64,000 nucleotides of DNA from a virus, in the UHGV virus genome UHGV-0253196. One strand, 5' to 3'. This document shows, in pieces, positions 5,654 to 56,707 of the stretch (position 1 is the stretch's first letter; each line of letters opens with the position of its first letter). Below the pieces are notes generated by a model. The model saw only the letters and a list, made by a program, of their open reading frames with translations, did no database searches and was not told the DNA's origin. The translations under genes and the position numbers were made by a program.

Positions 5654-5865
5654 TTGTAAGAGAGATTAAAGGTTGCTATCACTGTATCACGCTTTCCGAC
5701 AAGACCACGTTAAGGTTATTTCCCCGTAAGACCGTAGAAGTCGCGGACGCTCTTGTATCTAAAGAGATTCACGACCTTGAAGACGCGGGCGAAGTGATGT
5801 TAAGTGCTTCACCGAAGAAAGCACCAGTACAGAATGACGACAACAAAGAAGGAGGTAAGAAATAA
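5650..5865 (+). CDS. hypothetical protein
   Basis: GGAGGT RBS, GTG start overlapping the upstream stop. 71 aa. Confidence 0.35.
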   Translation: MIVREIKGCYHCITLSDKTTLRLFPRKTVEVADALVSKEIHDLEDAGEVMLSASPKKAPVQNDDNKEGGKK

Positions 5866-7364
5866 TGGCAGGAGAGTATTTAACACCGCAGGTCAAAGTT
5901 ATCAACACTAAGACCTCAAAGTCCCCCAACAAGGGTTCCAGTGCAACTACTGGTGTTCTGATTGGTGTTACGCAGAGAGGACCGATTGGTGTTCCAACGA
6001 AAGTGTCGTCCTGGGAAGAATACATTGAGAAGTTTGCTTATGGCATGGAAACACCGTTCCTGGTGGACAGCTACTTAGCATACTCCGTGTATGGCTTTTT
6101 CCAGAACGCCAACGCTGTGTTGAACGCGGGCGAAGTGAGTAAGGGTGCAGACCTTTATATCATGCGTGTAGCGTCCACTACTGCAAAGGCTTCTACATTC
6201 AGTGCAACGTCCGATGAATCACCTTTGGTTATCAATGCCAAAGACAAAGGTAAGTGGGGCAATAAAGTCAAAGTCGTGTTACAGGTGAACAAAGAAGAAT
6301 CTACACTGGTTGACTGTATCGTGTATATCGGTGCTGAGAAGAAAGAGCAGTTTTCCCGGCTGACAAAGACAGCCTCCAGTCCCAAGTTCTATGAGACCTG
6401 GATTAACGATAACAGCCAGTTTATCAATGTAGTTGCTGGCAACTTTACAGCGAACACCTATGACACAGCCTTTGCACTCGCTGGTGGTGCTGATGGCACC
6501 GAAGATTTAACAGACGAGATTTACAAAAGTATGCTTGTGAACCTGGACGAGATTGAAGACGAAAGACCTATCGCAATTCCGGGAGAGACAAGCGAAGGTC
6601 TCACCACAGCTTTGATTGACTATTGTAGTAACCGTAGAAACGGAGACCTGTTCCCTGTACTTGATGGTGCAAAGACAGCAGACGTTGACGCAATCAAGAC
6701 GTACAAGACAGCTATTGCTGGAACGCCCGGTGCTTTGTACTATCCGTGGTTGAAAGTGTCTGACCCGCTGTCCGTGTCTTCCAGTGCTACCATTGATTGT
6801 CCTACCTGCGGTCATGTGATGGGTGTCATTGCAAGAATCGCTAACAGTCGTGGTGTGTGGAAAGCACCTGCCGGGACAGAAGCCGTAGTCGTAGGTGCTG
6901 TAGGTCTTACCCGTAAGTTAAAGATTGGCGAAGACACAGACCAGTTAAGCCATAACGGTATCAACGCTATCCTTGTTAAGCCAGAGTACGGCATTGTTGT
7001 ATGGGGTGCAAGAACAATGGACAGCGAAGATATGGAGTATGTGTCCGACCAGTTGTTTAATATGTACTTAAGAACCACGCTGGACACACAGACACAGTGG
7101 GCCGTGTTTGAGCCGAACAAGGCAATTACCAGAACCAAACTTTCCACCCAGGTTGAAGGTATCATGTATGACCTGTTCAAACAGGGTGCTTTTGCTGGTG
7201 AAGCAGAAGACGGTTCTGATAGTTATTTTGTGCAGTGTGATGATTCCATCAATACCCAGCAGGTCATTGATAACCACAAGATTGTGTGTAAGGTGGGTTA
7301 CGCACTTTCCAAGCCAGCAGAGTTTGTGGTGTTCTACCTGTCCCACAACTTAGAGACACAGTAA
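5865..7364 (+). CDS. tail sheath protein
   Basis: AAGGAGG RBS. 499 aa, immediately upstream of the 157-aa tube gene and the chaperone-TMP block. Classic contractile-tail gene order. Confidence 0.75.
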   Translation: MAGEYLTPQVKVINTKTSKSPNKGSSATTGVLIGVTQRGPIGVPTKVSSWEEYIEKFAYGMETPFLVDSYLAYSVYGFFQNANAVLNAGEVSKGADLYIMRVASTTAKASTFSATSDESPLVINAKDKGKWGNKVKVVLQVNKEESTLVDCIVYIGAEKKEQFSRLTKTASSPKFYETWINDNSQFINVVAGNFTANTYDTAFALAGGADGTEDLTDEIYKSMLVNLDEIEDERPIAIPGETSEGLTTALIDYCSNRRNGDLFPVLDGAKTADVDAIKTYKTAIAGTPGALYYPWLKVSDPLSVSSSATIDCPTCGHVMGVIARIANSRGVWKAPAGTEAVVVGAVGLTRKLKIGEDTDQLSHNGINAILVKPEYGIVVWGARTMDSEDMEYVSDQLFNMYLRTTLDTQTQWAVFEPNKAITRTKLSTQVEGIMYDLFKQGAFAGEAEDGSDSYFVQCDDSINTQQVIDNHKIVCKVGYALSKPAEFVVFYLSHNLETQ

Positions 7365-9056: not shown

Positions 9057-12000
9057 ATGGGCGCATTTGGTCTAGGTTTAGTGCTTAATTTTACCGATAA
9101 CGCAACCGCAGGTATGAATAAAGTTTCTAACACCTTTAATTTAATGTCGCAAAACGCAGACGCTATGGTGTCGTCTGTAGAAGGTTCACTGAGTAGATTG
9201 TCGAACATGGGTATTATTGGTTCAACACTCATGCAGTTTGGTGATACCATGCAATCCGCAGGAGCGGGAATTTTAAACACCTACGAAAAAATCGGTAATA
9301 AAATAACTTCTATCGGTATGGATATGTACTCTGCAAGAGCACAGCTAACATCATTGTATGGTGGTGCTGACCCTGCCGAGGAACAGTTAAACAATATTAT
9401 GACTTATGCAAGAAAGTCGGTGTTTGCTTATCAAGACGTGTTAAAAGCCGTCATTATGATGAAAGCAAATGGTATTGAAGCACTAGAGGAAGTAACAAGC
9501 ACAAGTGGTAAGTCAACACAGAAGTTGATGGACTATGCTTCCGACCTAGCCGCATTTAACCCGCAAATGCGTAACTCATACGGAACTGGTGTTAGAGCCG
9601 CTATGGGTGCTATCAATGAGTACATAGCAGAAGGTAACGCTATTTCATTGAAACGTGGTGCGTCCCTAGATATTAACTCCATTCTGGGAGAAGATAAGGG
9701 TGCAACGATTGAAGAACGTACAAGACAGATAGCAGACCTCATGGAGAAGTTAAACATGGTTGGTCTTACTGCTGGTCTTGCAGGAACACCTATGCAACAG
9801 TTATCTAACATGGGCGACTTAGTGTTCCAGACGTTTTCAAAAATATCTGATAATGGTGTGTTTGAGAAGTTTAGTGAAATACTTGCAACTCTCACCACAC
9901 CTATACAAAGACTTGCGGACGAGACAGATATATTTGACCGTGTAGCAAGGTCTTTAGCTGACGCTATGTTAGCCATTATGAATCCTATTCAGAAGGTTGC
10001 AGAGTATCTAGCAACGTGGATAGAACCTATATTAGAGTTTGTAGCACAACACCCTAAACTTGTAGCCATGATAGGTGTCATTGGTGGTATAGCGGGTGTG
10101 TCATTACTCGCCGCAGGTATGTTACTCAAACTTGTAGGTAGTATTACCATGTTACAAGTAAGCCTGGGACTTTTAAGATTGAGCGGGTTAGGTGGTATAG
10201 GTATATTTAAGATGATGATTACCGCTGTAGGTGGTCTTATATCTGCAATAGCACCTTTTGTAGCCATAGCCTTTTTAATGTATGAAGCCTGGACTAATAA
10301 CATTCTGGGTATACGTGATGCGTTGACCGCGTTCATACAAGACGTTATGTTCTTAGGGACTGTGTTAGTAGACGCTTTGAGTGATGATACAATTTCCTAT
10401 GATATGTGGGTGAAAGCCCGTGACATGGGACTATTGCCCTTCATAGAAACAATACTTGACCTTAAGTATAACGTGATTGATTTTATCAATGGGTTTAAGC
10501 AAGGACTACAAGACATTAAGTCTTTTGTAGACCAAGTAGCAAACACCATGACACCGTTTGGATTCACGTTAAAAGACATTACAGACAAGGTTACAGAACT
10601 ACTTGATAAGTTTGTAGGGTTCAAGTTTTCGTCTGGCTGGGAAAGCGCGGGAAAGACATTCGCTATCATAGGAAGTGCTTTACTTGTAGCATTACCCGCA
10701 ATTAAGATAGTGTCTATACTGTTTGGTGCTATGACCTCACCTATTGGACTTATTGCCGCAGGAATAGCTTTAGTAGTCATGAACTTTGACAAGCTGAAAG
10801 AAGTCCTGGGTAATATACCGGGTATGATTGAAAACCTAGACCTTAAGTCTTTAGGAGGTTATATATCTGCCGCGTTGTTAGGACTTTTAGCAACTATCAA
10901 AGGTGGTTCATTCGCCTCTGGTTTTGCCAGTGTTACGTTGGGTGTGTTCAAAGGCGGGTTTGGGTTATTAATGAGTTTAGGCTCCTTCTTTGGCCCAATG
11001 ATAATTAAGTTCTTTCCTATGTTAGTCAAAGGTCTTTGGAGCATGATACCAGCAGGTATACAGTTATTTGCTGGTCTGTTTGCGGGTGTGTTTACAAAAA
11101 TGCTACCCCTGTTTGGTGCTAAAGTCATTGCGCTAGGCGGTAGAGTACTTGCACCTATACTGTCTATCTTTGGTGGTCTGGGCGCGAAGTTATTACCTTT
11201 ACTACTGAAAGTAGGAGGGACATTATTGGGTGCCATTGGTGCTATATTCGGGCCTATCATAAGTGCTATAGGCGGTGTTCCTCTGTTAATTGGTGGTGCT
11301 ATCATAGCCGCTATTGCTGTAGTAGTAGCGTTGATAACCAATAACGGTGAAGGAATAAAGAACGCCTTTGAGAAGATATGGAACGCAATACCAGAACCTA
11401 TACAGGGTGTTATCATTAAAGTAGGTCAAATGCTGTCCGGGTTAGCAAATAAGCTGATAGACGCATTAGGACTTAGACCTTTAATGAACACCATACAGCA
11501 GAACCTTCCACAGATTATTCAGTGGTTCAGTAACCTAGGAAACCAGATATTAGGTATATTCAGTAAGTTAATCACCTGGGTAAAGGGTGCATGGGACGGA
11601 TGGCTGGGAGACCTTATAAGAAACATTGGTTCCTTTGTGGGTAATGTAATCACAATCGTAGGTGGTCTGTTAGCTGTACTGATTCCTATAGTCATGGACT
11701 TAATCAGTGGTATACTTGATGTAGTGTTACCTATCGTTGACGGAATTGGTGCTATCATCAATGACGTTATGGACGTAGTGAACGGTATACTAGAGTTTAT
11801 CATTGGTGTGTTCACTGGTGACTGGGGTAAAGCCTGGGACGGTGTTGTGTCTACGTTCTCTGGCATATTCAACGCCGTGAAAGATATTTTTAAGACAGTT
11901 ATCAATGCAGTAATAGGTCTTGCGAATAAGTTTATCGGTGCACTGAATAAGATAAGTATTCCGGGAACAGATATAGGTGTTAATATTCCAGAGATACCGT

Positions 12001-12353
12001 TACTGAACACTGGTGGTTATGTAGAAAAAGAGGGCGCGGCAGTATTGCACCCGTCCGAGATTGTAGTCAATGCACCAATGACAAAGAAACTGGACGAGTT
12101 CTTGAATAACCAAGACAGAGCAGTGCCTAACGCTGGTGCCGTACCTACACAGGTAACACCGCCAGCAGTAACCGCAGATTCACATGACGATTACAGTGTT
12201 AAGTTTGAGCAAGGAAGTATTGTCATTCAAGCACAGAAGGGTATGTCCGAAGCTGAAATGCGTCAGATGGCAGAAACCATCATGAAGTATGCAGAGCGCA
12301 AGAGAGAAATAGACGCTATGGCAAGAAAGCCTAAAAAGGAGGTGTATGCTTAA
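9057..12353 (+). CDS. tape measure protein
   Basis: AAAGGAGG RBS. 1098 aa with many Gly/Ala-rich transmembrane-like segments in the middle and a charged C-terminus. Follows the chaperone pair. Confidence 0.85.
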   Translation: MGAFGLGLVLNFTDNATAGMNKVSNTFNLMSQNADAMVSSVEGSLSRLSNMGIIGSTLMQFGDTMQSAGAGILNTYEKIGNKITSIGMDMYSARAQLTSLYGGADPAEEQLNNIMTYARKSVFAYQDVLKAVIMMKANGIEALEEVTSTSGKSTQKLMDYASDLAAFNPQMRNSYGTGVRAAMGAINEYIAEGNAISLKRGASLDINSILGEDKGATIEERTRQIADLMEKLNMVGLTAGLAGTPMQQLSNMGDLVFQTFSKISDNGVFEKFSEILATLTTPIQRLADETDIFDRVARSLADAMLAIMNPIQKVAEYLATWIEPILEFVAQHPKLVAMIGVIGGIAGVSLLAAGMLLKLVGSITMLQVSLGLLRLSGLGGIGIFKMMITAVGGLISAIAPFVAIAFLMYEAWTNNILGIRDALTAFIQDVMFLGTVLVDALSDDTISYDMWVKARDMGLLPFIETILDLKYNVIDFINGFKQGLQDIKSFVDQVANTMTPFGFTLKDITDKVTELLDKFVGFKFSSGWESAGKTFAIIGSALLVALPAIKIVSILFGAMTSPIGLIAAGIALVVMNFDKLKEVLGNIPGMIENLDLKSLGGYISAALLGLLATIKGGSFASGFASVTLGVFKGGFGLLMSLGSFFGPMIIKFFPMLVKGLWSMIPAGIQLFAGLFAGVFTKMLPLFGAKVIALGGRVLAPILSIFGGLGAKLLPLLLKVGGTLLGAIGAIFGPIISAIGGVPLLIGGAIIAAIAVVVALITNNGEGIKNAFEKIWNAIPEPIQGVIIKVGQMLSGLANKLIDALGLRPLMNTIQQNLPQIIQWFSNLGNQILGIFSKLITWVKGAWDGWLGDLIRNIGSFVGNVITIVGGLLAVLIPIVMDLISGILDVVLPIVDGIGAIINDVMDVVNGILEFIIGVFTGDWGKAWDGVVSTFSGIFNAVKDIFKTVINAVIGLANKFIGALNKISIPGTDIGVNIPEIPLLNTGGYVEKEGAAVLHPSEIVVNAPMTKKLDEFLNNQDRAVPNAGAVPTQVTPPAVTADSHDDYSVKFEQGSIVIQAQKGMSEAEMRQMAETIMKYAERKREIDAMARKPKKEVYA

Positions 12354-39022: not shown

Positions 39023-41221
39023 ATGAAAGACGAAAGACTTAGAATGATGAAGCCCGTGGTCTACAATTCGTTATTCTCCAAGTGGTATCCTGTAAGACCG
39101 CGAATAGAAAAATACACCATTGTAGACACCATTCCAAAACTTAGGAAGTTGGCGAAAAAAGCAAAGAAACAGACTGAATTTTCTTTTGATACAGAGACCA
39201 ACGGGTTAAGAGCATACGGGCCAGACAAGAATTTCAGATGTGTGTGTATCACAATGAGCTGGGGGCCTAGAAATAACTATTATATCCCGCTTGCACACTT
39301 GCGTGACGAGGACATAGATAGAAACCTTGATTTAAGTGTTGCACGTCCTTTGTTAAATAAGATACTGGGCCGCAAAGACGTAAGATTGATAGGACATAAC
39401 ATAAAATTTGATATGCACGTATTAGCGCGTATTGGCGTTTATGTAAAGACAAGAGACTTATTCGACACAATGGTAGGTGTTTGGCTATGTGATGAAAACA
39501 CACCTAACGGTTTGAAAGAATCTTCAAAGATTAAGATGGATATAGACCAGACCCATTTTGCAGACGCAGTGGCTACAGTTCCAAAAGAAGTTAAAAAGCG
39601 TTTTGGTCTTAAGCCTAACAGTAAAGCCACGTATGACCTTGTGCTGATAGACGAAGGTGCACCATACGCGTTAGATGATAGTTACTTTACCTGGGAACTG
39701 TACTTAGGTTTGTTAGAAGAACTTGAACATGAAGAAATGGATAAGATTTTCTACAAACACTATATGCCGTTCATATGGACACTGTATCATATGGAAGAAC
39801 GAGGTATCACCGTTGATGTAGACAAGCTTAGACACATGGGTGTTGATATGGACAAAGACCTTGAAGACCTCATGTATCAGATGGTAGAGATTGCAGGTAT
39901 ACAGTTTAATCCGTCTTCACAGCAGTTAGGTGAATTATTGTTTGGTTATGTTAAAGAAGACAAGCTGAACGAAAAGACAGGTAAGATAACCAAAGCAAAC
40001 CCAAACTGGGACATTATCAAGCGTTCCTTTAAGTTCCGTATCATAAGCACCACACCAAAAGGTGCACCACAAGTTAATAATGACGTGTTGTGGAAATTAT
40101 CGCGCTTAGAATATAAAAAGAATAAGCGCAAACAGCAAGGTGTAGAATTTGTAAAGCTGTTAATGTCCTACAACAAAATCAAAAAGTTAAAGAGTGCTTT
40201 TGTTGACGGTCTGTTAGACCAGATATATGATGATGGGAAAGCACACCCTTCCTATAACATCATAGGGACAGACACGGGACGTTTAAGCTGTACAAGCCCT
40301 AACCTACAGCAGTTGCCGAAAGCAGAGGAAGAAGACCAGTACCAGATTAGAAGTGTGTTTATCGGTAGCTTAGATAAGTTCACGGGTAAACGTAAAAAGT
40401 TAATCGCGTGTGATTATGCTAACCTGGAAATGCGTGTTCTTGCACACTTCTCAAAAGACAAGAATTTGATAGATATGTTCTTGTCCGGGGCAGATACACA
40501 TGGTGCCACTGCTGTTAATATGTTCAATCTTGACTGTGAACCGAATGAGGTAAAGAAGAAGTATCACCATTTGAGACAAGCCGCGAAAACCATTAACTTT
40601 ATGTTGATGTATGGCGGCGGTAGATTCAGACTATATACTGCACTTAAGGACGACCAATCTTCACCTATTGATTTAGGTAGTGAGGAATACACCACACTGT
40701 ATGCTAAACAGATAGCAGAGTTCAAGCGCAATTTCCGGGGACGTAAAGTACCTAGTGACGGGGAGATAGTAGCACAGATTTACATTGACCGTTACTTTGA
40801 TTCATACAAGGGTGTTGCTGAGTTCATTAAAAGAGAAAAACGCTATGCACATAGACATGGGTATGTGTACACCTTAAAACGCCGTAAAAGACGTATCCCA
40901 GACATTAACAGTGATAACTTTGGTACTGTAGGGTATTGTGAACGTGTTAGTGTTAATGCACCTATCCAAGGTAGCGCGGCAGACATAACGTCCAGTGCAC
41001 AGAACCGTGTTGACCTTGACGAGTTTTTTGTAGAACACGGTGCACTGTTATTACTCCAAGTGCATGATGAACTTGTCATGGAATGTCCAGAAGAACACGT
41101 AGAGGTAGTCACTAAACGTCTGCAAGAGTTAATGGCACACCCATTCGGTGATAACATTGAACTGAACCTACCACTTAGAGCAGACGCAGATTCAGGGGAT
41201 TCCTACCAGGATGCCAAGTAA
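39023..41221 (+). CDS. DNA polymerase I family (PolA) with 3'-5' exonuclease domain
   Basis: Exo I motif FSFDTETNGL and exo II motif HNIKFDM. Polymerase motif A DYANLEMRVLAH, motif B RQAAKTINFMLMYGGG, motif C QVHDELV. Confidence 0.85.
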   Translation: MKDERLRMMKPVVYNSLFSKWYPVRPRIEKYTIVDTIPKLRKLAKKAKKQTEFSFDTETNGLRAYGPDKNFRCVCITMSWGPRNNYYIPLAHLRDEDIDRNLDLSVARPLLNKILGRKDVRLIGHNIKFDMHVLARIGVYVKTRDLFDTMVGVWLCDENTPNGLKESSKIKMDIDQTHFADAVATVPKEVKKRFGLKPNSKATYDLVLIDEGAPYALDDSYFTWELYLGLLEELEHEEMDKIFYKHYMPFIWTLYHMEERGITVDVDKLRHMGVDMDKDLEDLMYQMVEIAGIQFNPSSQQLGELLFGYVKEDKLNEKTGKITKANPNWDIIKRSFKFRIISTTPKGAPQVNNDVLWKLSRLEYKKNKRKQQGVEFVKLLMSYNKIKKLKSAFVDGLLDQIYDDGKAHPSYNIIGTDTGRLSCTSPNLQQLPKAEEEDQYQIRSVFIGSLDKFTGKRKKLIACDYANLEMRVLAHFSKDKNLIDMFLSGADTHGATAVNMFNLDCEPNEVKKKYHHLRQAAKTINFMLMYGGGRFRLYTALKDDQSSPIDLGSEEYTTLYAKQIAEFKRNFRGRKVPSDGEIVAQIYIDRYFDSYKGVAEFIKREKRYAHRHGYVYTLKRRKRRIPDINSDNFGTVGYCERVSVNAPIQGSAADITSSAQNRVDLDEFFVEHGALLLLQVHDELVMECPEEHVEVVTKRLQELMAHPFGDNIELNLPLRADADSGDSYQDAK

Positions 41222-48752: not shown

Positions 48753-49139
48753 ATGAAAACGAGTATTACAAAAATGTTCACCTTTGAAGCGGCACACAGA
48801 TTACCTAACTATGTAGGTGCGTGCGCTAATCTTCACGGTCATTCTTATAAACTTGCCGTGACTGTCACCACAGATAAGCCTTTAAATAAAGACCGCAACG
48901 CAACGGGTATGATAATGGATTTTAAAGTCCTCAAAGACATTGTGAACCGAAAGGTTGTCGGCCCGTTAGACCATTCACTGTTAAATGACTTTTACTACAA
49001 CCCCACCGCCGAGATTATGGTAGAAGACTTTGCCGCGAATATACAGGCAGGACTTGATGATTTTGATGAAAGTGTGTACGTTTCAAACATTAAGTTGTGG
49101 GAGACCGAAGACAGCTATGCAGAGTGGTCGAGAGACTAG
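48753..49139 (+). CDS. queD: 6-carboxy-5,6,7,8-tetrahydropterin synthase QueD
   Basis: FEAAHRLPNY...CANLHGHSYKL (T-fold fingerprint with CxxxHGH). 128 aa. Confidence 0.7.
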   Translation: MKTSITKMFTFEAAHRLPNYVGACANLHGHSYKLAVTVTTDKPLNKDRNATGMIMDFKVLKDIVNRKVVGPLDHSLLNDFYYNPTAEIMVEDFAANIQAGLDDFDESVYVSNIKLWETEDSYAEWSRD

Positions 49140-49156
49140 AGAAAGAGGTGTTGTAT

Positions 49157-49798
49157 ATGATGTTCTATCATGAGATATTTTTATCTATACAGGGTGAATC
49201 CAGTGACGCAGGACGCCCTTGTATATTTGTAAGAATGTACGGCTGTCCGATTGGGTGTTCATATTGCGACCAGCCCCAGGAAAAGAGTGACAGAAAGCGT
49301 ATTGGTGTTGACACCATGTTATCAAAGATATACGCATTGAAGTGTAAGAACGTGTGCTTCACAGGTGGAGAACCTATGATTTACGCGCAGGAACTTATAC
49401 CCGTGTTTATCGAACTTACCGACCGGGGCTACACCGTGTCCGTAGAGACCAGCGGGTGTGTAGAGTTAGAGTCTTACCCCGTGAGAAGGTCATTTAAGTA
49501 CGTGATGGATATTAAATGCCCCAGTAGTGAGGTGTCAGAGAAGAACATTTACAGAAACCTTGCGTACTTACAGCCACATGACGAGGTGAAGTTTGTCGTG
49601 GCAGACGAGAAGGACTACCAATTTGCCCGTAACGTGTTAAAGCGTTATAATACCAGTGCGCAAATTTTATTTAGTCCCATGTTTGACACAGACGGCAAAG
49701 CAGTGATAGGACAAGAACTTGTGAACTGGATTTTGAGAGACAAGCTGTTTAATGCCCGGGTTCAGATTCAGTTACACAAAATTCTGTCAGTGAGGTAA
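49157..49798 (+). CDS. queE: 7-carboxy-7-deazaguanine synthase QueE (radical SAM)
   Basis: AAGAGGTG RBS. LSIQGESSDAGRPCIFVRMYGCPIGCSYCD is the QueE N-terminal cluster motif. Confidence 0.7.
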   Translation: MMFYHEIFLSIQGESSDAGRPCIFVRMYGCPIGCSYCDQPQEKSDRKRIGVDTMLSKIYALKCKNVCFTGGEPMIYAQELIPVFIELTDRGYTVSVETSGCVELESYPVRRSFKYVMDIKCPSSEVSEKNIYRNLAYLQPHDEVKFVVADEKDYQFARNVLKRYNTSAQILFSPMFDTDGKAVIGQELVNWILRDKLFNARVQIQLHKILSVR

Positions 49799-49802
49799 AC
49801 AC

Positions 49803-50525
49803 ATGATTGGAAAACGTAACCCAGAAAAAGACCAAGACTATTACAATGGTCTGATTGAGAGTATATGGTATAATCTAGTAGAGGTTAAATCAGAACTTAC
49901 AGGTATTAAAGAGGAAGTAAACAAAGACCATCCATTTAAAGAAGACCCAGGACACCTTAGTGCTGAAAGATTACCCGTAAAGAAAAATACTATTAGGGAG
50001 CACTTAAAGGAGGGTTATCTTCCTAAAAGACCCGTTAAGGTGTTCAGTAACCGGGACGAAGCATATGATTGTTTATACTACTGGTTAGAGAAGTTATATC
50101 TTACCGATTGGGCCATAAAACTTAAATTCGTGCGGATAAATGAAGAACCACTTAATGACGAACAGTCTGGCGACGTACGCAGAGTATTTGAGCAGAAAGC
50201 GGCGATAATCACCCTTCCATTGCCAGACGATAACTTTCTTGACGCTTGCAAAAGCAGTGTTGCGAGAGTGGGCCACGAACAGTCTTTGGTGCATGAGTTA
50301 TTGCACTTAAAGGAAGACCCTGTACAGTTTGTAGAAGATGGTGATTATACCGCCGGGTTCTATAACATACACAAACACAATGAAGTTGAAATGATGGCAA
50401 GAACACTGTTAATGGTGAAGTACAACTTATCGCCGTCTTACTTCAATAACGTAGACAGAAAGGAGAACGACAATGGCTTGTGGCACAAAGAAACCGAAGA
50501 CACCGAAGAAACCCAAAAAGAATAA
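49803..50525 (+). CDS. hypothetical protein with HExxH motif (VHELLHL)
   Basis: GAGGT RBS. 240 aa embedded in the deazaguanine cluster. Function unknown. Confidence 0.4.
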   Translation: MIGKRNPEKDQDYYNGLIESIWYNLVEVKSELTGIKEEVNKDHPFKEDPGHLSAERLPVKKNTIREHLKEGYLPKRPVKVFSNRDEAYDCLYYWLEKLYLTDWAIKLKFVRINEEPLNDEQSGDVRRVFEQKAAIITLPLPDDNFLDACKSSVARVGHEQSLVHELLHLKEDPVQFVEDGDYTAGFYNIHKHNEVEMMARTLLMVKYNLSPSYFNNVDRKENDNGLWHKETEDTEETQKE

Positions 50526-50541
50526 GAAGTAGGACAACCGA

Positions 50542-50571
50542 AGACCTGTGCTAATAAAGACAGGTCTTTTC
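50542..50571 (+). terminator. rho-independent terminator / attenuator inside the Que cluster
   Basis: AGACCTGT-gctaataaag-ACAGGTCT followed by TTTT. Confidence 0.5.
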
Positions 50572-50591
50572 GTATGAAAGGAATACATGAC

Positions 50592-50900
50592 ATGGGACAG
50601 ATATCAAAATTAGCTGAAAATGCGTATGAAACCGCAGTTGCGCACGGTTGGTATGACACACCAGTTTCGTTTGGTGAGGAAGTTGTGTTGTGTCACAGTG
50701 AGTTATCCGAAGCACTACAGGAGTTTAGAGTAGGAGGGTTTGGAACACGTAAAGACAAGATAACTGAGGAACTAGCAGACACAGTTATAAGGATTTTTAC
50801 TCTAAGTTCAAGACACCAGCTTGACATTGAAGCGGCAATATTAAAGAAGATGGAAAAGAACAAAGACAGACCATACAGACATGGAGGAAAGTTACTATGA
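50592..50900 (+). CDS. MazG-like nucleoside triphosphate pyrophosphohydrolase
   Basis: Small all-alpha protein with an EExxE-like motif LCHSELSEALQE...ELADTVIRIF. Confidence 0.5.
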   Translation: MGQISKLAENAYETAVAHGWYDTPVSFGEEVVLCHSELSEALQEFRVGGFGTRKDKITEELADTVIRIFTLSSRHQLDIEAAILKKMEKNKDRPYRHGGKLL

Positions 50901-52612
50901 GTAAACCAGTTGTAGTATTAAATAGTGGAGGTTTTGACAGCACCGTATTGTTACATTATGTAAAAGAGGTTGAAGAAGACAGTCTTGTATACTCACTGTT
51001 TTTTGAATACGGTCAGCGTTCCATGGAACAAGAAAGACGCTGTGCGCGTAAAAACTCTGTAGACCTTGACGCGCAGTATATAGGTGTCAGTCTTCCAAAG
51101 ATATACTGGACTGGCAGTGACTTCTATAATGAGGGAGGGTTTAAGGTAGACAAGCAGTATCTTGAAATGAGAAATTTAATTTTTCTGTCATATGCTCTTT
51201 CCTTTGCAGAGAGTGTAGGTGCAGAAAAGGTTTATCTTGCAGTGCTGAAATCACACCACGGGTATCCAGACACATCACCTAGATTTATTAGTGCTATGAA
51301 TGAGGTATCGAATATAATAGGTGTTAGTATTGAAGCACCATTTATAGAGAGTGACAAATACAACCTTGTTGGTCTTGCTTACAAGTACGGCATTACTGAA
51401 AACGACTTTCACAGTTGTGATAAACCTACTACAGACGGGAAACCGTGTGGCGTGTGTGATGATTGTGAGGTAGTAAAAGAAATCATGTCCCAGTTAGAGT
51501 TAAAACACCCACGGGACGTAAAGTTTAGTCCAAGAGGAACACATGAACAGTATGAGACCGTCTATAAAGAGTACCCGGTGAGTGAGTTAAGATTCACCAT
51601 AAATAACAGGTGCCAGTTTAGTTGCGCTCATTGTTACTACGGATATGAGACTTCACACCGGGAAGACCTATCAGAGAAGGAACTTACTGAATTTGCTATC
51701 AGACTTCACAAGCAGTTTGGGTTTAAGAGTATTCACTATTGCGGCAAAGAACCTATGATTGATAGCGCGATATTTGATTCCATAAGGACACTTAGGAAGG
51801 TGTTACCCGTTGACATTGAATACAGTGTTGTAACAAACGGCTTAACTGTGACTGAATACTATGAGCAGTTAGTGAATGAAAGGTTGTTAGACAAGGTGTT
51901 CCTGTCCGTTGATGATATTGAGACAGTGACGGATAAAGAACAGAAGTTACGAAACACCAGTAGGCATATATTAAATGCTATAGACTTCCTGGTTACGAAT
52001 AAAGTTCCGTTACAAGTGTTTATTGACCTTCACAAAGGTAACTACAACTACATCAATGAAATGTTGTATCAGTTAGTGAAGTTAGGTGTTAGAGAGTTTT
52101 TCGTCCGGGCAATAATGCCAATAGGTAACGCCGAAGACCTTGAACCTCTGTCCATAGCAGAGATAGCGGAAGTGTACAGTAAACTTAAGAGGTTGACAAA
52201 CTATTACCACACCACCGTTAAAGACTTTAAAGTACTTCTTACTTTAGGTAAAGACGTTATAGTCCGTATGCAGGAGCGTGACATTGACGATATGACAAAA
52301 GACGAGGAAGACTTAATAGAAATGGTTGCAAAGTCTTTAGAGTATAACACAGACGTTGTTGTGCCGGGAATGAGTATATACCCGGAGGAAGTTTGCACAC
52401 AGTTTCTTGATACTCTTACCCTTACATCAGACGGGTATGTGTTAGGCTGTACTTCCGCTGTAAGCTGTAGTGAGTACTGGAAACACAGCGCGTTTGATAT
52501 AAATACACCAGACGAGGACTTCAAGAATCGTTTGATTGAAGCAAGAAGTAAGGTGTTAGAGTATGACGGTGAAAATTGTCCATTTTCTTGTCCCAAAAGT
52601 ATTGACATTTAA
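50897..52612 (+). CDS. queC: QueC (7-cyano-7-deazaguanine synthase) fused to a C-terminal radical SAM / SPASM-like domain
   Basis: N-terminal PP-loop VVVLNSGGFDSTVLL and zinc site CGVCDDCEVV (QueC). Then FTINNRCQFSCAHCYY (CxxxCxxC), CGKEPM, VVTNG, and a C-terminal Cys-rich tail (CTQ...C...C...CPFSC). 571 aa versus about 220 aa for stand-alone QueC. Confidence 0.7.
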   Translation: MSKPVVVLNSGGFDSTVLLHYVKEVEEDSLVYSLFFEYGQRSMEQERRCARKNSVDLDAQYIGVSLPKIYWTGSDFYNEGGFKVDKQYLEMRNLIFLSYALSFAESVGAEKVYLAVLKSHHGYPDTSPRFISAMNEVSNIIGVSIEAPFIESDKYNLVGLAYKYGITENDFHSCDKPTTDGKPCGVCDDCEVVKEIMSQLELKHPRDVKFSPRGTHEQYETVYKEYPVSELRFTINNRCQFSCAHCYYGYETSHREDLSEKELTEFAIRLHKQFGFKSIHYCGKEPMIDSAIFDSIRTLRKVLPVDIEYSVVTNGLTVTEYYEQLVNERLLDKVFLSVDDIETVTDKEQKLRNTSRHILNAIDFLVTNKVPLQVFIDLHKGNYNYINEMLYQLVKLGVREFFVRAIMPIGNAEDLEPLSIAEIAEVYSKLKRLTNYYHTTVKDFKVLLTLGKDVIVRMQERDIDDMTKDEEDLIEMVAKSLEYNTDVVVPGMSIYPEEVCTQFLDTLTLTSDGYVLGCTSAVSCSEYWKHSAFDINTPDEDFKNRLIEARSKVLEYDGENCPFSCPKSIDI

Positions 52613-52718
52613 TACTCATGGTGTATAATTGTATTCAGAGATTTAGGAATGGCGTAGGTCTTCCGTATTTACCTACAGCCTAGTCCCTTGCTCACAATAC
52701 GATAAGGAGGTAAACACC

Positions 52719-52895
52719 ATGATGAATGTTTACGCAGAATCCCCCAAAGGTGGCGGGCGTGCCGCTGGTGGTAATGCACAGCAGACTGCACCCGCACCGA
52801 CCAGAGGTGGAGTAAGAGCCACACTGGGTAGAGCGGCTACAGGTGCAAGAAACGCGCTGAACAGGATTATTCGTCCCAGAGGACGTAACCGTTAA
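52719..52895 (+). CDS. small Arg/Gly/Ala-rich peptide (58 aa)
   Basis: AAGGAGG RBS 8 nt upstream. Highly basic and disordered (GGGRAAGG...RGGVRATLGRAATGARNALNRIIRPRGRNR). Confidence 0.35.
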   Translation: MMNVYAESPKGGGRAAGGNAQQTAPAPTRGGVRATLGRAATGARNALNRIIRPRGRNR

Positions 52896-52997
52896 TCAGT
52901 CCCGCACCAAGAAAGAGAGAAGTCCTAATAAACTGGGACTTCTTTTCTTTTACCCGGATTTATGTTATACTGTCTTAAAAAGAAAGGAGACAACACA

Positions 52998-53252
52998 ATG
53001 TATATTGAATCACCAAGAGACAAAGAAGGAGTTAGAGACTGGGAAGCAGAAGAAGACGCACAGGCTTTATTAAAAGCCCGCCAAATTAACTCAGACCCCG
53101 TGAGAAAAGCGAAAGCACAGGCGGTTATAAGGAGTACCCAGGCCACGTTACAAGGTGCGTTGACTGGGACACCTCCTGTAAACACACCGAGTTCAAGAAA
53201 TAACCCCGCCACTATCGGACAGTTAAACATTCCCGGCAGAAACAAAAGATAA
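52998..53252 (+). CDS. hypothetical protein
   Basis: AAAGGAG RBS. 84 aa. Confidence 0.4.
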   Translation: MYIESPRDKEGVRDWEAEEDAQALLKARQINSDPVRKAKAQAVIRSTQATLQGALTGTPPVNTPSSRNNPATIGQLNIPGRNKR

Positions 53253-53307
53253 CACCAGAACACCACAAACACATTATATACTTACAGAAGACAGAAAGGA
53301 ATCGCGC

Positions 53308-53859
53308 ATGAACGATAAATACAATTTGAGTTCAAAAGAGCAGGAGATAGCCAGCCATATAAAAGGTATAATGAGTTTGCTAGGTATTGAGGAAACACCA
53401 TCAAACATAGACACCCCAAAGCGGATAGCGAAAATGTATAGCCGCGAAGTGTTTAGCAGTGAAGGTAAAGACCTAGCCGAACTTGACGCACAAATGACTA
53501 CTTTCATTAACACGGATTTAAGTTCAATGCCCGTGACAATGACCGGGATTAAGTTTAGTTCCATGTGTGCACACCACTGGCTACCATTTTTCGGTGAAGT
53601 AGAGATAAGCTACACACCGTTTACCAAAGTGATTGGGTTGTCAAAACTGCCGCGAGTTGTGAAGTGGTTCAGTAAAAAGCCACAGACCCAGGAAGAAATG
53701 ACGAAAGAGATAGGGAACTACTTAGCAGTGTTCCTTAATCCCCGTAAACTGTCCGTGAAGGTAACAGCATTGCATACTTGCGTAGCGTGTAGGGGAATTG
53801 AGAGCGTAGGGACAGAGACCATAACTGAATACAGATATAACAGAGGGGAAGACGCTTAA
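53308..53859 (+). CDS. folE: GTP cyclohydrolase I FolE
   Basis: AAAGGAA RBS. SMCAHHWLPFFGEVEISY matches the FolE active-site motif CEHHLVPF. Confidence 0.75.
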   Translation: MNDKYNLSSKEQEIASHIKGIMSLLGIEETPSNIDTPKRIAKMYSREVFSSEGKDLAELDAQMTTFINTDLSSMPVTMTGIKFSSMCAHHWLPFFGEVEISYTPFTKVIGLSKLPRVVKWFSKKPQTQEEMTKEIGNYLAVFLNPRKLSVKVTALHTCVACRGIESVGTETITEYRYNRGEDA

Positions 53860-53875
53860 CGGCGTCTTTTCTTTT
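53849..53875 (+). terminator. rho-independent terminator
   Basis: AAGACGC-ttaacg-GCGTCTT followed by TTCTTTTG. Confidence 0.5.
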
Positions 53876-53923
53876 GCGCGCAATATGATATAATAAGTAC
53901 ATAACTTATGAAAGAGGTGAACC

Positions 53924-54505
53924 ATGAAGGTAGCAATATTTAATGGCAGTTCAAGACAGCATAGTAACAGTGAACTAATCTCAGGTGAATTAAGACGTAT
54001 ATTTGAGCGTCTAGGGTATGACACCGTAGTGCTCAATGCAAGTGACATGACAGGCTGTAGACCATGTAATCAATGTGGATTCTGTAGTTCAGTAGGTAGC
54101 TGTATATATGAAAGAGATACTCTGGGACAACACCATATTAAATGTATATGGGCTAGTGACATATGGGTGATTGTAACACCTGTGTATTGCTTTTCCATGT
54201 CCCCGCCGACCTTGACGTTACTGTCCCGGTTTTATTCTTATGGCCCAGAAGTGTTGCAAGATAAAGTTGTGTCTTCTGTGATAGTAAGTGGCAGTAGCGG
54301 TAGATATGGTGGAAAGAGCCTTGTAAATGAATCCTTTAAGCGATACTTTGAATATACAGGTGCTAACTATACAAACAAGCCCATAGGTATCACTACAAAC
54401 GACACCGTGTTAGAAGACCTGCATACACTTACACCACGGTTAAGACTATTTTGTAAAGACTTGATAAGGAGAGCGAAAAATGCTGAAAATAGTACCAAGG
54501 ACTAA
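53924..54505 (+). CDS. iron-sulfur flavoprotein (Isf / NADPH-dependent FMN reductase-like) with compact Cys cluster
   Basis: Flavodoxin-like N-terminus MKVAIFNGSSRQHSNSEL. CRPCNQCGFCSSVGSC = C-x2-C-x2-C-x2-C-x5-C. Confidence 0.5.
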   Translation: MKVAIFNGSSRQHSNSELISGELRRIFERLGYDTVVLNASDMTGCRPCNQCGFCSSVGSCIYERDTLGQHHIKCIWASDIWVIVTPVYCFSMSPPTLTLLSRFYSYGPEVLQDKVVSSVIVSGSSGRYGGKSLVNESFKRYFEYTGANYTNKPIGITTNDTVLEDLHTLTPRLRLFCKDLIRRAKNAENSTKD

Positions 54506-56648
54506 AAAGAAACCCGTACCAAAGAAAAAGGTTCCACCAAAAAAGAAGACCACCACGCCCGTAGAGATAGACGAGACCCCGGAAGTAGAGGAAGAACCAA
54601 AAAAGAACTATAGTTCTCTGCATGATGTAATGGACACTAACAGACCTTTTAAGTTAGTGTTTTCTGGCGTTGAGAATGAAAGCTACTATGACATACTTTT
54701 TGATTGCGGCGTGCGTAGCTTTCTAATGTCCTATCACTATATCCAGAGCAAGCACATTAAAATGCGTGATAGGTTTGATGGGACGGGTGTTAAACTGTTT
54801 ATTGATAGTGGCGCGCATACATACCAGAATGACCCTAAATATCTGGAACTTCCGTTAGAGTATTGGGAGAAGCACTTGCAGAAGTACCTTAACTGGGTTG
54901 AGCGGAATAGAAAGTATATATTTGCCATAGCAAGTTTTGACTTTGAGAACATTGTAGGTGCAGACACAGTAGATAGGTGGAACCGAGAATACTTAGAACC
55001 GTTCATGTTGCGCACAGGTATACCAGTGTGTTTCGTGTGGCACCAAAATTCAAAGTATGACTGGGAGTTCTATTGCAAGCGTTATCCCTATGTGGGATTT
55101 TCGTCTGTCAATACAGAAGGTGAAGCCATAGAACTATCAGAGTATAAACAAAGACTGAAAGTGGCAGAGAAGAACGAAGCACTTGTACACGGGTTCGGTA
55201 TGACGCGTACAGGTATGTTGACTGAACTTCCCTTCTACACCTCAGATAGTACGACATGGCTTGTGGGTTTGCAGTATGGGGAAATGAACTACTGGAATGG
55301 CACCAAAATGAACCGCCTTAAGAAAGACAAGTGGAAATCACCTGCTGTACTATCAGAGTTTGAGAGAAGGTATAACTCAGACCAAACACTGTTAGAGCAG
55401 GAAGACATAACCGAGGTGATAAAAGTCAATGTGTTTGCTTTCCTTGACGCAGAGGATTATATCGTCACCAAGCTACGTTCTCAAATGTACTGGTTAAAAG
55501 CAAAGACAACTAAACGGGACGTGAATAACTTACCGCCAGACTTCTTTCCAGACCCTGACATGGTGATGGTGTGTTTAGACGAAGGTGATAAAAGTGTAGT
55601 GTCATATGCTCAGAAATTTAATATCAACCCGGAATATGCTGACGCTGACTTTTTAGTGTGTTGTGCTACATTGTTCCTTAACTGGGATAACTCAATATAC
55701 AGTGACTGTAAGGACATACTCATTGAGGACGAAGCAGTGATTAAATCCCTCCATGACACACTGATAAACAGGATAGTCCCAGGTGTTGATGAAATGGTCG
55801 AAGACCTAACGCAGTTATTCAAAGAGTGCATAAGCGGCGAGAATGACAAGCTATTACAGATAGGCACCAACTTTGACCGCGCACAGAAAGAGCGTGAACA
55901 CTATATAGAGGAAGAAGACGAGTATGAGGAAGTAGAAGTATCAGAAGGTGAGATAAGGGCCGCTGTGTATAACAACATTCCTAAAGACCGTCTTCTTACC
56001 GCAGGTGAAGATTCCGCGCCAGAGATTACGGAACTTGACGCAGAAATATTTAACGGCACAGGTATAACACCACGTTTTGATGATAGAGGTAAATTCCTTA
56101 AAGGTGTTAGACAAGTAAAGAAACCAAAGTCCGTGTACAGTAAGAAGTTCCCTAAACTGGCGTGTGCTACGTGTTTCGCGGCAAGTACGTGTCCAGAATA
56201 CAAAGACGGCTATGTGTGTGCTTATAATAAGCTGTTCAGCAACTATGACACACGTAACATGGGTGACATTGTAGAAGCTATGCAATCCATGGCAAGTGTG
56301 AACATGGGCCGCCTACAGAAAGCAATGCTGTTTGAGACACTAGGTGGTGCATTAGACCCACAGGTATCACAGCTTATTAATCAGAACGTCACTTTGCTGA
56401 ACAACCTTAAGTCAATGTATGAGAACACCAACGCAATGGTGCTTAAACAGACCCGCAATATAAGACAGGACGGAAGTGTAGAAGAATCTGTGCAAGTAAC
56501 CAATCCTCAGAGCATGGGTATTATGGAACAGTTACTATCAAAGATAATGCCTAGTAGTGATAAAGAAGACGAGGTTATAGTTGAATCAGAGGACGTAACA
56601 CCCAAAAAGAAAAGCAGTGCATATGCAGACCTGGAAGAAGACGATTAA
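54480..56648 (+). CDS. candidate DpdA-like DNA-guanine transglycosylase (TGT fold) with basic N-terminal linker and large C-terminal extension
   Basis: KLFIDSGAHTYQ resembles the TGT ILTDSGGFQ motif. IFAIASFDFEN resembles MMAFDEC. Downstream Cys cluster CATCFAASTCPEYKDGYVC. Co-located with preQ0 synthesis genes. Confidence 0.5.
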   Translation: MLKIVPRTKKKPVPKKKVPPKKKTTTPVEIDETPEVEEEPKKNYSSLHDVMDTNRPFKLVFSGVENESYYDILFDCGVRSFLMSYHYIQSKHIKMRDRFDGTGVKLFIDSGAHTYQNDPKYLELPLEYWEKHLQKYLNWVERNRKYIFAIASFDFENIVGADTVDRWNREYLEPFMLRTGIPVCFVWHQNSKYDWEFYCKRYPYVGFSSVNTEGEAIELSEYKQRLKVAEKNEALVHGFGMTRTGMLTELPFYTSDSTTWLVGLQYGEMNYWNGTKMNRLKKDKWKSPAVLSEFERRYNSDQTLLEQEDITEVIKVNVFAFLDAEDYIVTKLRSQMYWLKAKTTKRDVNNLPPDFFPDPDMVMVCLDEGDKSVVSYAQKFNINPEYADADFLVCCATLFLNWDNSIYSDCKDILIEDEAVIKSLHDTLINRIVPGVDEMVEDLTQLFKECISGENDKLLQIGTNFDRAQKEREHYIEEEDEYEEVEVSEGEIRAAVYNNIPKDRLLTAGEDSAPEITELDAEIFNGTGITPRFDDRGKFLKGVRQVKKPKSVYSKKFPKLACATCFAASTCPEYKDGYVCAYNKLFSNYDTRNMGDIVEAMQSMASVNMGRLQKAMLFETLGGALDPQVSQLINQNVTLLNNLKSMYENTNAMVLKQTRNIRQDGSVEESVQVTNPQSMGIMEQLLSKIMPSSDKEDEVIVESEDVTPKKKSSAYADLEEDD

Positions 56649-56679: not shown

Positions 56680-56707
56680 TTGACAGTTTCCTTATTAAAG
56701 CTATAAT
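56680..56707 (+). promoter_or_regulatory. consensus sigma-A promoter TTGACA-16-TATAAT
   Basis: Both consensus hexamers read in the sequence. Confidence 0.55.

Follow-up and report, generated by a model that had tools for sequence, protein, structure and literature searches.

Which guanine derivative does a phage place in its DNA when its QueC carries an extra radical S-adenosylmethionine (SAM) domain? The question is raised by UHGV virus genome UHGV-0253196, of which we analysed a stretch of 64,000 nucleotides (the window; all positions count from its first letter). Between 48,753 and 56,648 lies an island of ten open reading frames (ORFs) in which a reading of the letters alone (hereafter, the sequence-only reading) had recognized a preQ0 pathway, a candidate DpdA transglycosylase and several components outside the described systems, and from which it had proposed a further-modified, possibly new, base. 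We read the island as a BCD7-type 7-deazaguanine DNA-modification operon that has acquired a mobile radical tailoring module and makes a base other than preQ0, and consider the chances for and against this reading evenly balanced. The module consists of a QueC–radical-SAM fusion and an iron-sulfur flavoprotein, and it is widespread, conserved and apparently undescribed.

48753–56648, + strand: QueD-to-DpdA island; ten ORFs (QueD, QueE, HExxH protein, MazG-like protein, QueC–radical-SAM, 58-aa peptide, 84-aa protein, FolE, flavoprotein and 722-aa protein)
50897–52612, + strand: QueC–radical-SAM fusion, 571 aa (PF06508 at residues 5–193, E = 2e-33; PF04055 at residues 235–381, E = 9e-14)
50897–51496, + strand: QueC domain, residues 1–200 (SGGFDS loop, zinc cysteines, Foldseek matches to QueC 2pg3 and 3bl5)
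51560–52612, + strand: radical-SAM core and twitch-type auxiliary-cluster domain, residues 222–571 (cysteine motifs, structural neighbours)

The QueC–radical-SAM fusion

Catalytic signatures are conserved in both halves of the fusion. Across alignments of 40 and 118 members, the QueC half is invariant at the PP-loop (S10-G-G-F-D-S15), R92-N93, K154 and the zinc cysteines C174/C184/C187/C190, so that the SGGxDS loop and the C-x(8-10)-CxxCxxC zinc site of canonical QueC are both present. Invariant positions of the radical-SAM core are C239-x3-C243-x2-C246, H245, H280 and G283-K-E-P286, followed near the C terminus by C500-x12-G513-x4-C518 and one distal cysteine (C561 or C565). The fusion therefore carries the Twitch/SPASM pattern of a CX3CX2C core plus a C-terminal CX9-15GX4C hairpin, and the seven-cysteine motif of a full SPASM domain (two auxiliary clusters) was not found in it. 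Because the invariant cysteines beyond the core number three, we predict a twitch-like domain with one auxiliary cluster held by three protein ligands, possibly leaving an open iron site. A divergent fusion at a locus without the flavoprotein (L017:7998-9665) has Gln at the C518 equivalent (FLLGQASEYS).

The AF2 model of the fusion is of high confidence (pLDDT 94.1, pTM 0.91), and Foldseek matched its N-terminal half to QueC (2pg3, 3bl5) and Cap9. The extra radical-SAM domain that the sequence-only reading saw on QueC is supported by the structural neighbours of the C-terminal half, namely SkfB (E = 8e-12, TM 0.61), SuiB, CteB, DesII, viperins, MoaA, BlsE, EpeE and anSME, with no NCBIfam cut-off reached. 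The fusion shares its core and hairpin with Twitch/SPASM enzymes (SkfB, SuiB, CteB, anSME, BtrN, MoaA and AhbD/NirJ) but differs in having QueC as N-terminal partner instead of a peptide-recognition domain and in its three invariant auxiliary cysteines; we presume that it acts on a small heterocycle.

Searching for homologues of the fusion yielded 202 clusters (90% identity). The 120 homologues listed contain QueC, are 544–575 aa long, are nearly all annotated as QueC plus radical SAM and, four near-identical ones aside, are at 33–41% identity; none of the 120 bears any name but QueC. In a search of 1.84 billion representatives, 46 matches fell below E = 1e-30 and nearly all were QueC fusions. 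The nearest stand-alone relatives (22–29% identity) are themselves unassigned SPASM/twitch enzymes. The literature searched, including two surveys of phage 7-deazaguanine modification and one, from 2026, of QueC-family proteins, makes no mention of a QueC–radical-SAM fusion.

The radical-SAM domain could instead act on a nucleoside triphosphate, as MoaA does on GTP and viperin on CTP, for instance in manipulating the nucleotide pool together with MazG and with no relation to a deazaguanine side chain. Its best NCBIfam match is indeed archaeal MoaA (E = 3e-17), its best PDB sequence matches are viperin-like enzymes and MoaA, a PADLOC scan of the island proteins gave only generic QueC and viperin-like matches (pVip, E = 1e-13), and a MazG-like gene adjoins the fusion in the window. 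Yet the MoaA and viperin matches span only the generic radical-SAM core and fall far under the cut-offs (62.6 versus 325 bits and 44.3 versus 180 bits, respectively), the MazG-like gene is limited to contigs nearly identical to the window, and the fusion to QueC at a fixed position in the que operon argues for a deazaguanine substrate. We consider action on a nucleoside triphosphate very improbable.

The QueC domain itself departs from the canonical enzyme, scoring 98.8 bits against TIGR00364 (cut-off, 150.3). The E. coli QueC reference sequence that we used is consistent at the motif positions with the numbering of PMC13329287. Of the canonical motifs YxQxHxxE, VPxRN and YPDC and residue Y189 (PMC13329287), the fusion retains Y, Q, R-N, Y and D rather than the full set. 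Across the clade H39 is replaced by S or N and Y189 by D or N (E. coli numbering), V-P has become L/I-E in most members, and C134 is T in most fusions. The H39 and Y189 substitutions are common to the fused and plain QueC proteins of BCD7-like phages, and no motif difference segregated cleanly between the two forms.

An Isf-like flavoprotein and variation of the operon

53924–54505, + strand: Isf-like iron-sulfur flavoprotein, 193 aa (PF03358, E = 7e-16; 58.6 bits, cut-off 24)

The flavoprotein contains C48-x2-C51-x2-C54-x5-C60, which is invariant in five divergent homologues, and its profile matched flavodoxin-like FMN reductases in the PDB (1rli, E = 5e-11). A compact CX2CX2CX4-7C motif within the FMN_red fold is the signature of iron-sulfur flavoproteins (Isf) of anaerobes; by fold and motif, the protein is a predicted [4Fe-4S]/FMN protein of this type. 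To score co-occurrence, QueC sequences were clustered at 85% identity and each lineage was scored for all genes from QueD to DpdA, with three loci added manually. Of the 19 lineages that have an extra radical-SAM domain, 9 encode the flavoprotein, and of the 15 that have none, 0 do (Fisher one-sided p = 0.0018, uncorrected for phylogeny). Among the clustered lineages it was the sole gene family exclusive to radical-SAM loci, and no recurrent radical-SAM partner beyond FMN_red was found there.

Gain or loss of the module can be seen between close relatives. Two phage loci (L012 and L029) share about 93% DNA identity until the end of QueE, after which one has the fusion and the flavoprotein and the other plain QueC alone. 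Identity collapses across the QueC region, the flavoprotein forms a clean 520-bp insertion, and the DpdA proteins are 78% identical; the difference is a recent cassette swap.

The backbone into which the module is set is an ordinary one. Bacillus phage BCD7 belongs to the phages that have DpdA and a full preQ0 pathway with no further tailoring gene (Hutinet 2019). Although BCD7 (Becedseptimavirus) has no DNA-level similarity to the window, its gp021–gp028 follow the same order (QueD, QueE, small ORF, QueC, two small ORFs, FolE, DpdA), it also has SpoVS-like (ahead of QueD), RusA-like and Cas4-like genes upstream, and its large DpdA (757 aa, 41.7% identity) has the conserved C-terminal half with four cysteines. 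In contrast to the window, its QueC is 215 aa long and has no radical-SAM domain, no FMN_red/Isf gene lies between FolE and DpdA, and the cluster has no HExxH or MazG gene. The window is thus a known, BCD7-type backbone plus the radical-SAM domain, the flavoprotein, HExxH and MazG.

This gene order recurs in more than 100 fetched loci, and in BCD7-like phages the radical-SAM fusion constantly occupies the same operon slot, whereas 11 lineages have plain QueC. Between QueE and DpdA we found plain QueC, QueC with a 240-aa domain, QueC–radical-SAM, QueC–radical-SAM with Isf, and QueC–radical-SAM with a second radical-SAM protein, with or without Isf.

Two of these variants were looked at individually. 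The 446-aa QueC variant (L025:7998-9338; L026–L028, L085, L088–L099), found in four lineages, none with the flavoprotein, joins QueC to an unrelated C-terminal domain of about 240 aa. The idea that this domain is a decayed radical-SAM domain was rejected, as it has no CxxxCxxC motif and no Pfam family, and hhalign matched the QueC part only. In other loci FolE is followed, ahead of the flavoprotein or DpdA, by a stand-alone radical-SAM paralogue (about 270–290 aa, twitch motif retained). This paralogue accompanies plain QueC in L073 and comes on top of the fusion in L111–L113, whose operons therefore encode three radical-SAM enzymes each, QueE counted.

L073:2196-3125, L111:7001-7810, L112:6053-6910 and L113:7001-7864: stand-alone radical-SAM paralogues

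The large DpdA and the proposed pathway

48753–49139, + strand: QueD (6-carboxytetrahydropterin synthase), 128 aa (PF01242, E = 3e-29; TIGR03367, 91.5 bits, above the cut-off of 89.25)
49157–49798, + strand: QueE (7-carboxy-7-deazaguanine synthase, radical SAM), 213 aa (TIGR04349, E = 3e-57; phrog_2076, E = 3e-38)
53308–53859, + strand: FolE (GTP cyclohydrolase I), 183 aa (PF01227, E = 3e-44; phrog_2197, E = 6e-49)
54480–56648, + strand: large DpdA-family DNA-guanine transglycosylase, 722 aa (DpdA homologue of the TGT fold)
54630–55499, + strand: TGT-like TIM-barrel catalytic domain of DpdA, residues ~51–340 (D109 in DSGA, D154, H188, D256 in DSTTW; pLDDT ~90)
55500–56648, + strand: C-terminal half of DpdA (invariant C562-x2-C565-x5-C571-x8-C580 cluster)

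Every island gene named by the sequence-only reading (FolE, QueD, QueE, the QueC fusion and the MazG-like, Isf-like, HExxH and Arg/Gly-rich ORFs) was recovered in its place on the + strand by Pfam, NCBIfam and PHROG matches or translation, with E-values of the matches far past chance. QueE scored under the equivalog cut-off of TIGR04349; we place its start at ATG 49157, as in gene calls on identical contigs, and the ORF itself opens at GTG 49097. FolE, QueD, QueE and QueC thus stand together in one virus genome, and the claim of a full preQ0 pathway plus DpdA in a phage is borne out by these matches and by the phage structural and replication genes of the window.

The 722-aa protein had been proposed as a TGT-fold DpdA, and its family matches agree. 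It has no Pfam match, and PDB sequence searches with the protein and with a 14-sequence profile returned only noise. It matched phrog_887 over its entire length (E = 1e-72), and tblastn found BCD7 gp021 (41.7% identity) and, more weakly, the DpdA proteins of JenP1 and SE1 (9g-like; E = 4e-6) and of mycobacteriophages (E = 6e-8). Its detection from 9g-type DpdA places it with the DpdA1 subfamily as against DpdA2. A profile of 53 homologues aligned with three DpdA1 proteins (99% probability, E = 8e-18) at the motifs FxDSGA, HGFGxT and PxYxxDSxxW, with D109 and D256 opposite D72 and D215 of DpdA1. D109, D154, H188 and D256 are invariant in both the 53 and 14 homologues, and by motif, not structural superposition, this set of three Asp and one His appears to match D95/D130/H181/D256 of Salmonella DpdA, whose Asp residues serve as general acid/base, in base recognition and as nucleophile (PMC10164549). 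The AF2 model is confident over residues ~45–470 and of low pLDDT near the C-terminal cysteines; Foldseek of this model against the PDB found only weak generic TIM barrels, and structural comparison placed the protein as close to the DNA-modifying DpdA 7ui4 as to any TGT. In L038 an intein splits DpdA precisely at YTSDS|TTW (L038:12023-15475; also L066) and a second interrupts FolE at its CEHH zinc motif (L038:9937-11499; also L066), both with LAGLIDADG endonuclease domains. Catalytic cores are typical sites of intein insertion.

The C-terminal half of DpdA is conserved in 14 of 14 aligned relatives, BCD7 included, and may possibly bind DNA; residues 554–703 weakly matched phrog_6902 'terminase small subunit' (E = 7e-7). 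The long DpdA is present in all related phages, whether or not they bear the radical-SAM domain. Among the components that the sequence-only reading had placed outside described systems, the Isf-like flavoprotein and the radical-SAM part of the QueC fusion hold up, both being absent from the literature searched, whereas the long DpdA does not. It is an already catalogued component, because BCD7 gp021 (757 aa) has it too, C-terminal half included, and is entered under 'DpdA' rather than DpdA2 in Hutinet 2019 (Supplementary Data 1).

By homology, FolE, QueD and QueE would convert GTP to 7-carboxy-7-deazaguanine (CDG), and the QueC domain would activate CDG with ATP and amidate or dehydrate it in the direction of 7-amido- or 7-cyano-7-deazaguanine (ADG or preQ0). 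The radical-SAM domain would then take the QueC product, possibly binding its base at the open iron site of the auxiliary cluster, and convert it by 5′-deoxyadenosyl-radical chemistry to a 7-deazaguanine derivative other than preQ0, while the Isf-like protein would supply the low-potential electrons for SAM cleavage in an anaerobic Clostridia host. The large DpdA, with D256 as predicted nucleophile and D109 as general acid/base, would remove guanine from duplex DNA and insert the deazaguanine base in its place, which would protect the DNA from restriction. We separate here the domain identities, folds, conserved ligands, fusion conservation and co-occurrence and co-loss with the flavoprotein, which are observed, from the substrate, reaction, order relative to DpdA and electron-donor role, which are inferred.

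Radical tailoring of the QueC product is supported by the fusion, its conservation and fixed slot, its gain and loss together with a low-potential electron carrier, and the precedent of Gat-QueC. In Enterobacteria phage 9g and relatives, QueC is likewise fused to a second catalytic domain and accompanied by FolE/QueD/QueE and a DpdA1-type transglycosylase (PMC6884629, PMC10516641); there, however, the partner is a glutamine amidotransferase of known chemistry (amidine formation), with no Fe–S cluster or reductant. No ArcS/DUF5591 match was found in any island protein by Pfam and NCBIfam family searches, and no ArcS-like gene recurs among the clustered related loci. Gat-QueC of phage 9g is associated with the dG+ modification. 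The sole described radical-SAM enzyme downstream of preQ0 is RaSEA (PMC11298593), which acts in archaeosine synthesis of Euryarchaeota; ArcS–RaSEA resembles our proposal in its radical-SAM step after preQ0 and differs in that ArcS makes preQ0-lysine for RaSEA and the substrate is tRNA. We rejected RaSEA as the identity of the domain, as family searches found neither an ArcS partner nor a RaSEA match, the 25 top NCBIfam matches listed for the fusion not including RaSEA. The bacterial Dpd system (DpdA/DpdB/DpdC) has the same three-Asp and His pattern and its own tailoring step after preQ0 (DpdC), whereas the window has neither the DpdB ATPase nor DpdC, and its DpdA shares 12% identity with the bacterial enzyme and has a 380-aa C-terminal extension.

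Several points weigh against tailoring to a new base. The chemistry and the final base cannot be read from sequence, and preQ0, ADG and CDG offer no obvious sp3 C–H for hydrogen abstraction. The radical-SAM domain reaches no NCBIfam cut-off, its nearest stand-alone relatives match no curated family and are equally uncharacterized, and about half of the radical-SAM lineages have no flavoprotein. Because H39 and Y189 are lost in the clade and the Y189A variant of E. coli QueC is inactive (PMC13329287), it is uncertain even whether QueC makes preQ0 or ADG. In DpdA, no catalytic-domain column segregates with the presence of the radical-SAM domain, a search for pocket residues tracking it found none, and phages with and without the domain interleave in DpdA clustering. 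This missing co-variation weakens the case for a new base; were the inserted base a different one, it would be unexpected unless DpdA is promiscuous, as demonstrated for DpdA2 (PMC10516641).

The missing co-variation would also fit a final base of dPreQ0 (or dADG), as predicted for BCD7, with the radical-SAM domain and flavoprotein ancillary in strict anaerobes, for example in an alternative amide-to-nitrile route or in Fe–S or cofactor supply. The module appears dispensable in being gained or lost between near-identical phages, relatives with plain QueC are common, and a nitrile-formation helper is conceivable for a QueC without H39 and Y189. But plain-QueC siblings with the same substitutions manage without the domain, a 350-aa domain whose cluster ligands are invariant across at least 200 clusters points to a specific catalytic role, and the second radical-SAM paralogue of some phages looks like elaboration of a pathway rather than housekeeping. 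An ancillary role, by either route, is in our judgement unlikely. Slightly less likely still, the domain may act after insertion, with DpdA inserting preQ0 and the fusion modifying preQ0 inside DNA. An unchanged inserted base would suit an unchanged DpdA, and precedents exist in DpdC, which converts preQ0-DNA to ADG-DNA (PMC10164549), and on tRNA in ArcS/RaSEA (PMC11298593). Fusion to QueC, a free-base enzyme, suggests instead consecutive steps on the free base, and Pfam, NCBIfam and Foldseek detected no DNA-binding domain in the fusion. Tailoring of the free base before insertion thus stays our preferred reading, and the further-modified, possibly new base of the sequence-only reading is plausible.

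Other island genes, phage context and significance

49803–50525, + strand: HExxH protein, 240 aa (LVHELLH motif; no Pfam or PHROG family)
50592–50900, + strand: MazG-like NTP pyrophosphatase, 102 aa (phrog_3301 'pyrophosphatase', E = 2e-26)
52719–52895, + strand: Arg/Gly/Ala-rich basic peptide, 58 aa, between QueC and FolE (translation)
52998–53252, + strand: 84-aa protein ending ...NNPATIGQL (homologues in 8 radical-SAM and 7 plain loci; no Pfam family)
52602–52629, + strand: sigma-70-type promoter-like site, TTGACA-16-TATAAT, 12/12 (pattern match only), at the end of the QueC–radical-SAM gene and ahead of the 58-aa gene
56680–56707: second such site, TTGACA-16-TATAAT, 12/12 (pattern match only), directly after DpdA

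The C-terminal ~135 aa of the HExxH protein form a conserved HExxH...H domain in which H87-E-L-L-H91 and H115 (alignment numbering) are invariant; its profile weakly matched MJ1213 selecase (E = 0.018), and we regard it as a putative mini-zincin. The gene is present in 5 of 16 radical-SAM loci and 1 of 15 others. MazG scored slightly under the Pfam cut-offs (PF03819, 21.9 versus 22; PF12643, 22.5 versus 27). Between QueC and FolE, BCD7-like phages always encode small basic proteins, radical-SAM or not (for example, L001, L010, L012, L013, L019, L025 and L029). One type is 50–70 aa long, rich in Arg/Gly/Asn and mostly begins M-(x)-K/N-V/A-Y/F-A; the other, of about 85–130 aa, ends in R(R/N)NPATIG(Q/R/S)L. 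As judged by pattern, the two promoter-like sites would divide the island into two transcription units.

These genes invite the proposal that the target of the island, in whole or in part, is a peptide or protein and not DNA. QueC-like and TGT-like enzymes would place deazaguanine on the small basic peptides, as Cap9/Cap10 and QatC place it on proteins, and the twitch radical-SAM domain would be a peptide maturase with the HExxH protein as processing peptidase. Structurally, the radical-SAM half is closest to maturases of ribosomally synthesized and post-translationally modified peptides (RiPPs; SkfB, SuiB and CteB), Cap9 and Cap10 are among the structural matches, small peptide genes lie within the operon in every relative (that of the window with a consensus promoter), and a mini-zincin-like gene is at hand. 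However, the peptides and the big DpdA also accompany plain QueC, Cys and Trp, the residues for known cross-links, are absent from the 58-aa peptide, and DpdA is nearer to DpdA1 and as near to 7ui4 as to any TGT. Moreover, the radical-SAM half has QueC where a RiPP recognition element, which it does not have, would stand, and the HExxH gene is missing from most radical-SAM loci. We consider this proposal very improbable. Nor do MazG, HExxH and the small peptides signal extra base chemistry: MazG is lineage-specific and the others also occur in relatives without the radical-SAM domain.

Further genes vary among the relatives. A conserved 197-aa protein (MRILSIDFDYF…IDFHHDMY…), for which Pfam has no family, is encoded between QueC and FolE (L004:12097-12687, L010:10101-10694, L064 and L068) or after DpdA (L043 and L084), with fused and plain QueC alike. 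Co-occurrence counts ruled out this protein, MazG and the HExxH protein as partners of the radical-SAM module. ORFs of ~225–230 aa with Cys-rich N termini and an HNH-like motif, probably homing endonucleases, occur at varied points in que/dpdA operons (L004:8956-9624, L010:6905-7600 and L011:10044-10718); the L004 ORF, which was scanned, gave a weak HNH match under the cut-off (E = 6e-4). On a 137-kb contig in a metagenome-assembled genome (MAG) labelled Mogibacterium, the loci (L040/L041/L044/L045/L070/L100) point to two que/dpdA copies, and all genes are fragmented into short ORFs (QueE, 147 aa; QueC, 126–303 aa; radical SAM, 80–253 aa), which could reflect faulty assembly, pseudogenes or stop-codon recoding.

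The window is a segment of a phage genome, of myovirus-like type, whose + strand carries nearly all genes. Its further genes include:

1484–2548: major head protein
5865–7364: tail sheath
9057–12353: tape measure
39023–41221: family-A DNA polymerase (PolA), 732 aa
57568–58248: PemK/MazF-like toxin-family gene (phrog_1936, E = 9e-19; PF02452 in an identical contig)

Helicases, a DnaB-like helicase, a primase, a UvsX-like recombinase, Holliday-junction resolvases, a Cas4-like nuclease and signal-peptidase-like and SpoVS-like genes are also encoded. No tRNA gene was found in the window, and in ten further ORFs of the window Pfam searches detected neither QueF nor a methyltransferase nor any other tailoring gene. 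The PemK/MazF-like gene is two genes 3′ of DpdA, after a 247-aa ORF of no family. The polymerase of a near-identical relative (L002, 1–318) has an intein, whereas that of the window has none.

The phage, an uncultured one of the human gut, is known from metagenomes only. The island matched none of 50,697 phage records by megablast; an IMG/VR contig (L007) encodes a fusion 100% identical to that of the window, and a human-gut metagenome contig (L051) is 97% identical. Related contigs are 76–91 kb long and, when binned, fall in MAGs labelled Clostridia, Eubacteriales or Thermosipho. Because of these labels and the anaerobic ribonucleotide reductase encoded by relatives, the hosts are probably anaerobic Firmicutes.

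The eight natural 7-deazaguanine DNA bases known to us all arise by non-radical tailoring of CDG, preQ0 or preQ1. If our reading is right, the conserved QueC–radical-SAM fusion and its dedicated low-potential flavoprotein would bring radical chemistry into DNA hypermodification, and at least one new base would be predicted in abundant gut phages of Clostridia. The 680–760-aa 'hypothetical proteins' of the clade (at least 657 clusters, no Pfam domain) are DpdA transglycosylases. More broadly, and with a little less than even confidence, we propose that the human-gut and other anaerobe phages of this clade use radical-SAM tailoring to make at least one 7-deazaguanine DNA base not observed before, and that the slot between QueE and DpdA, with its combinatorial variation, is a diversification hot-spot, which host defences recognizing modified guanines would drive. 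The large family (at least 200 sequence clusters) and the near-isogenic phage pairs with and without the module make the question directly testable. Such bases would bear on restriction and CRISPR evasion, on nanopore base-calling of gut viromes and on efforts to find defence systems directed at modified guanines, glycosylases for example.

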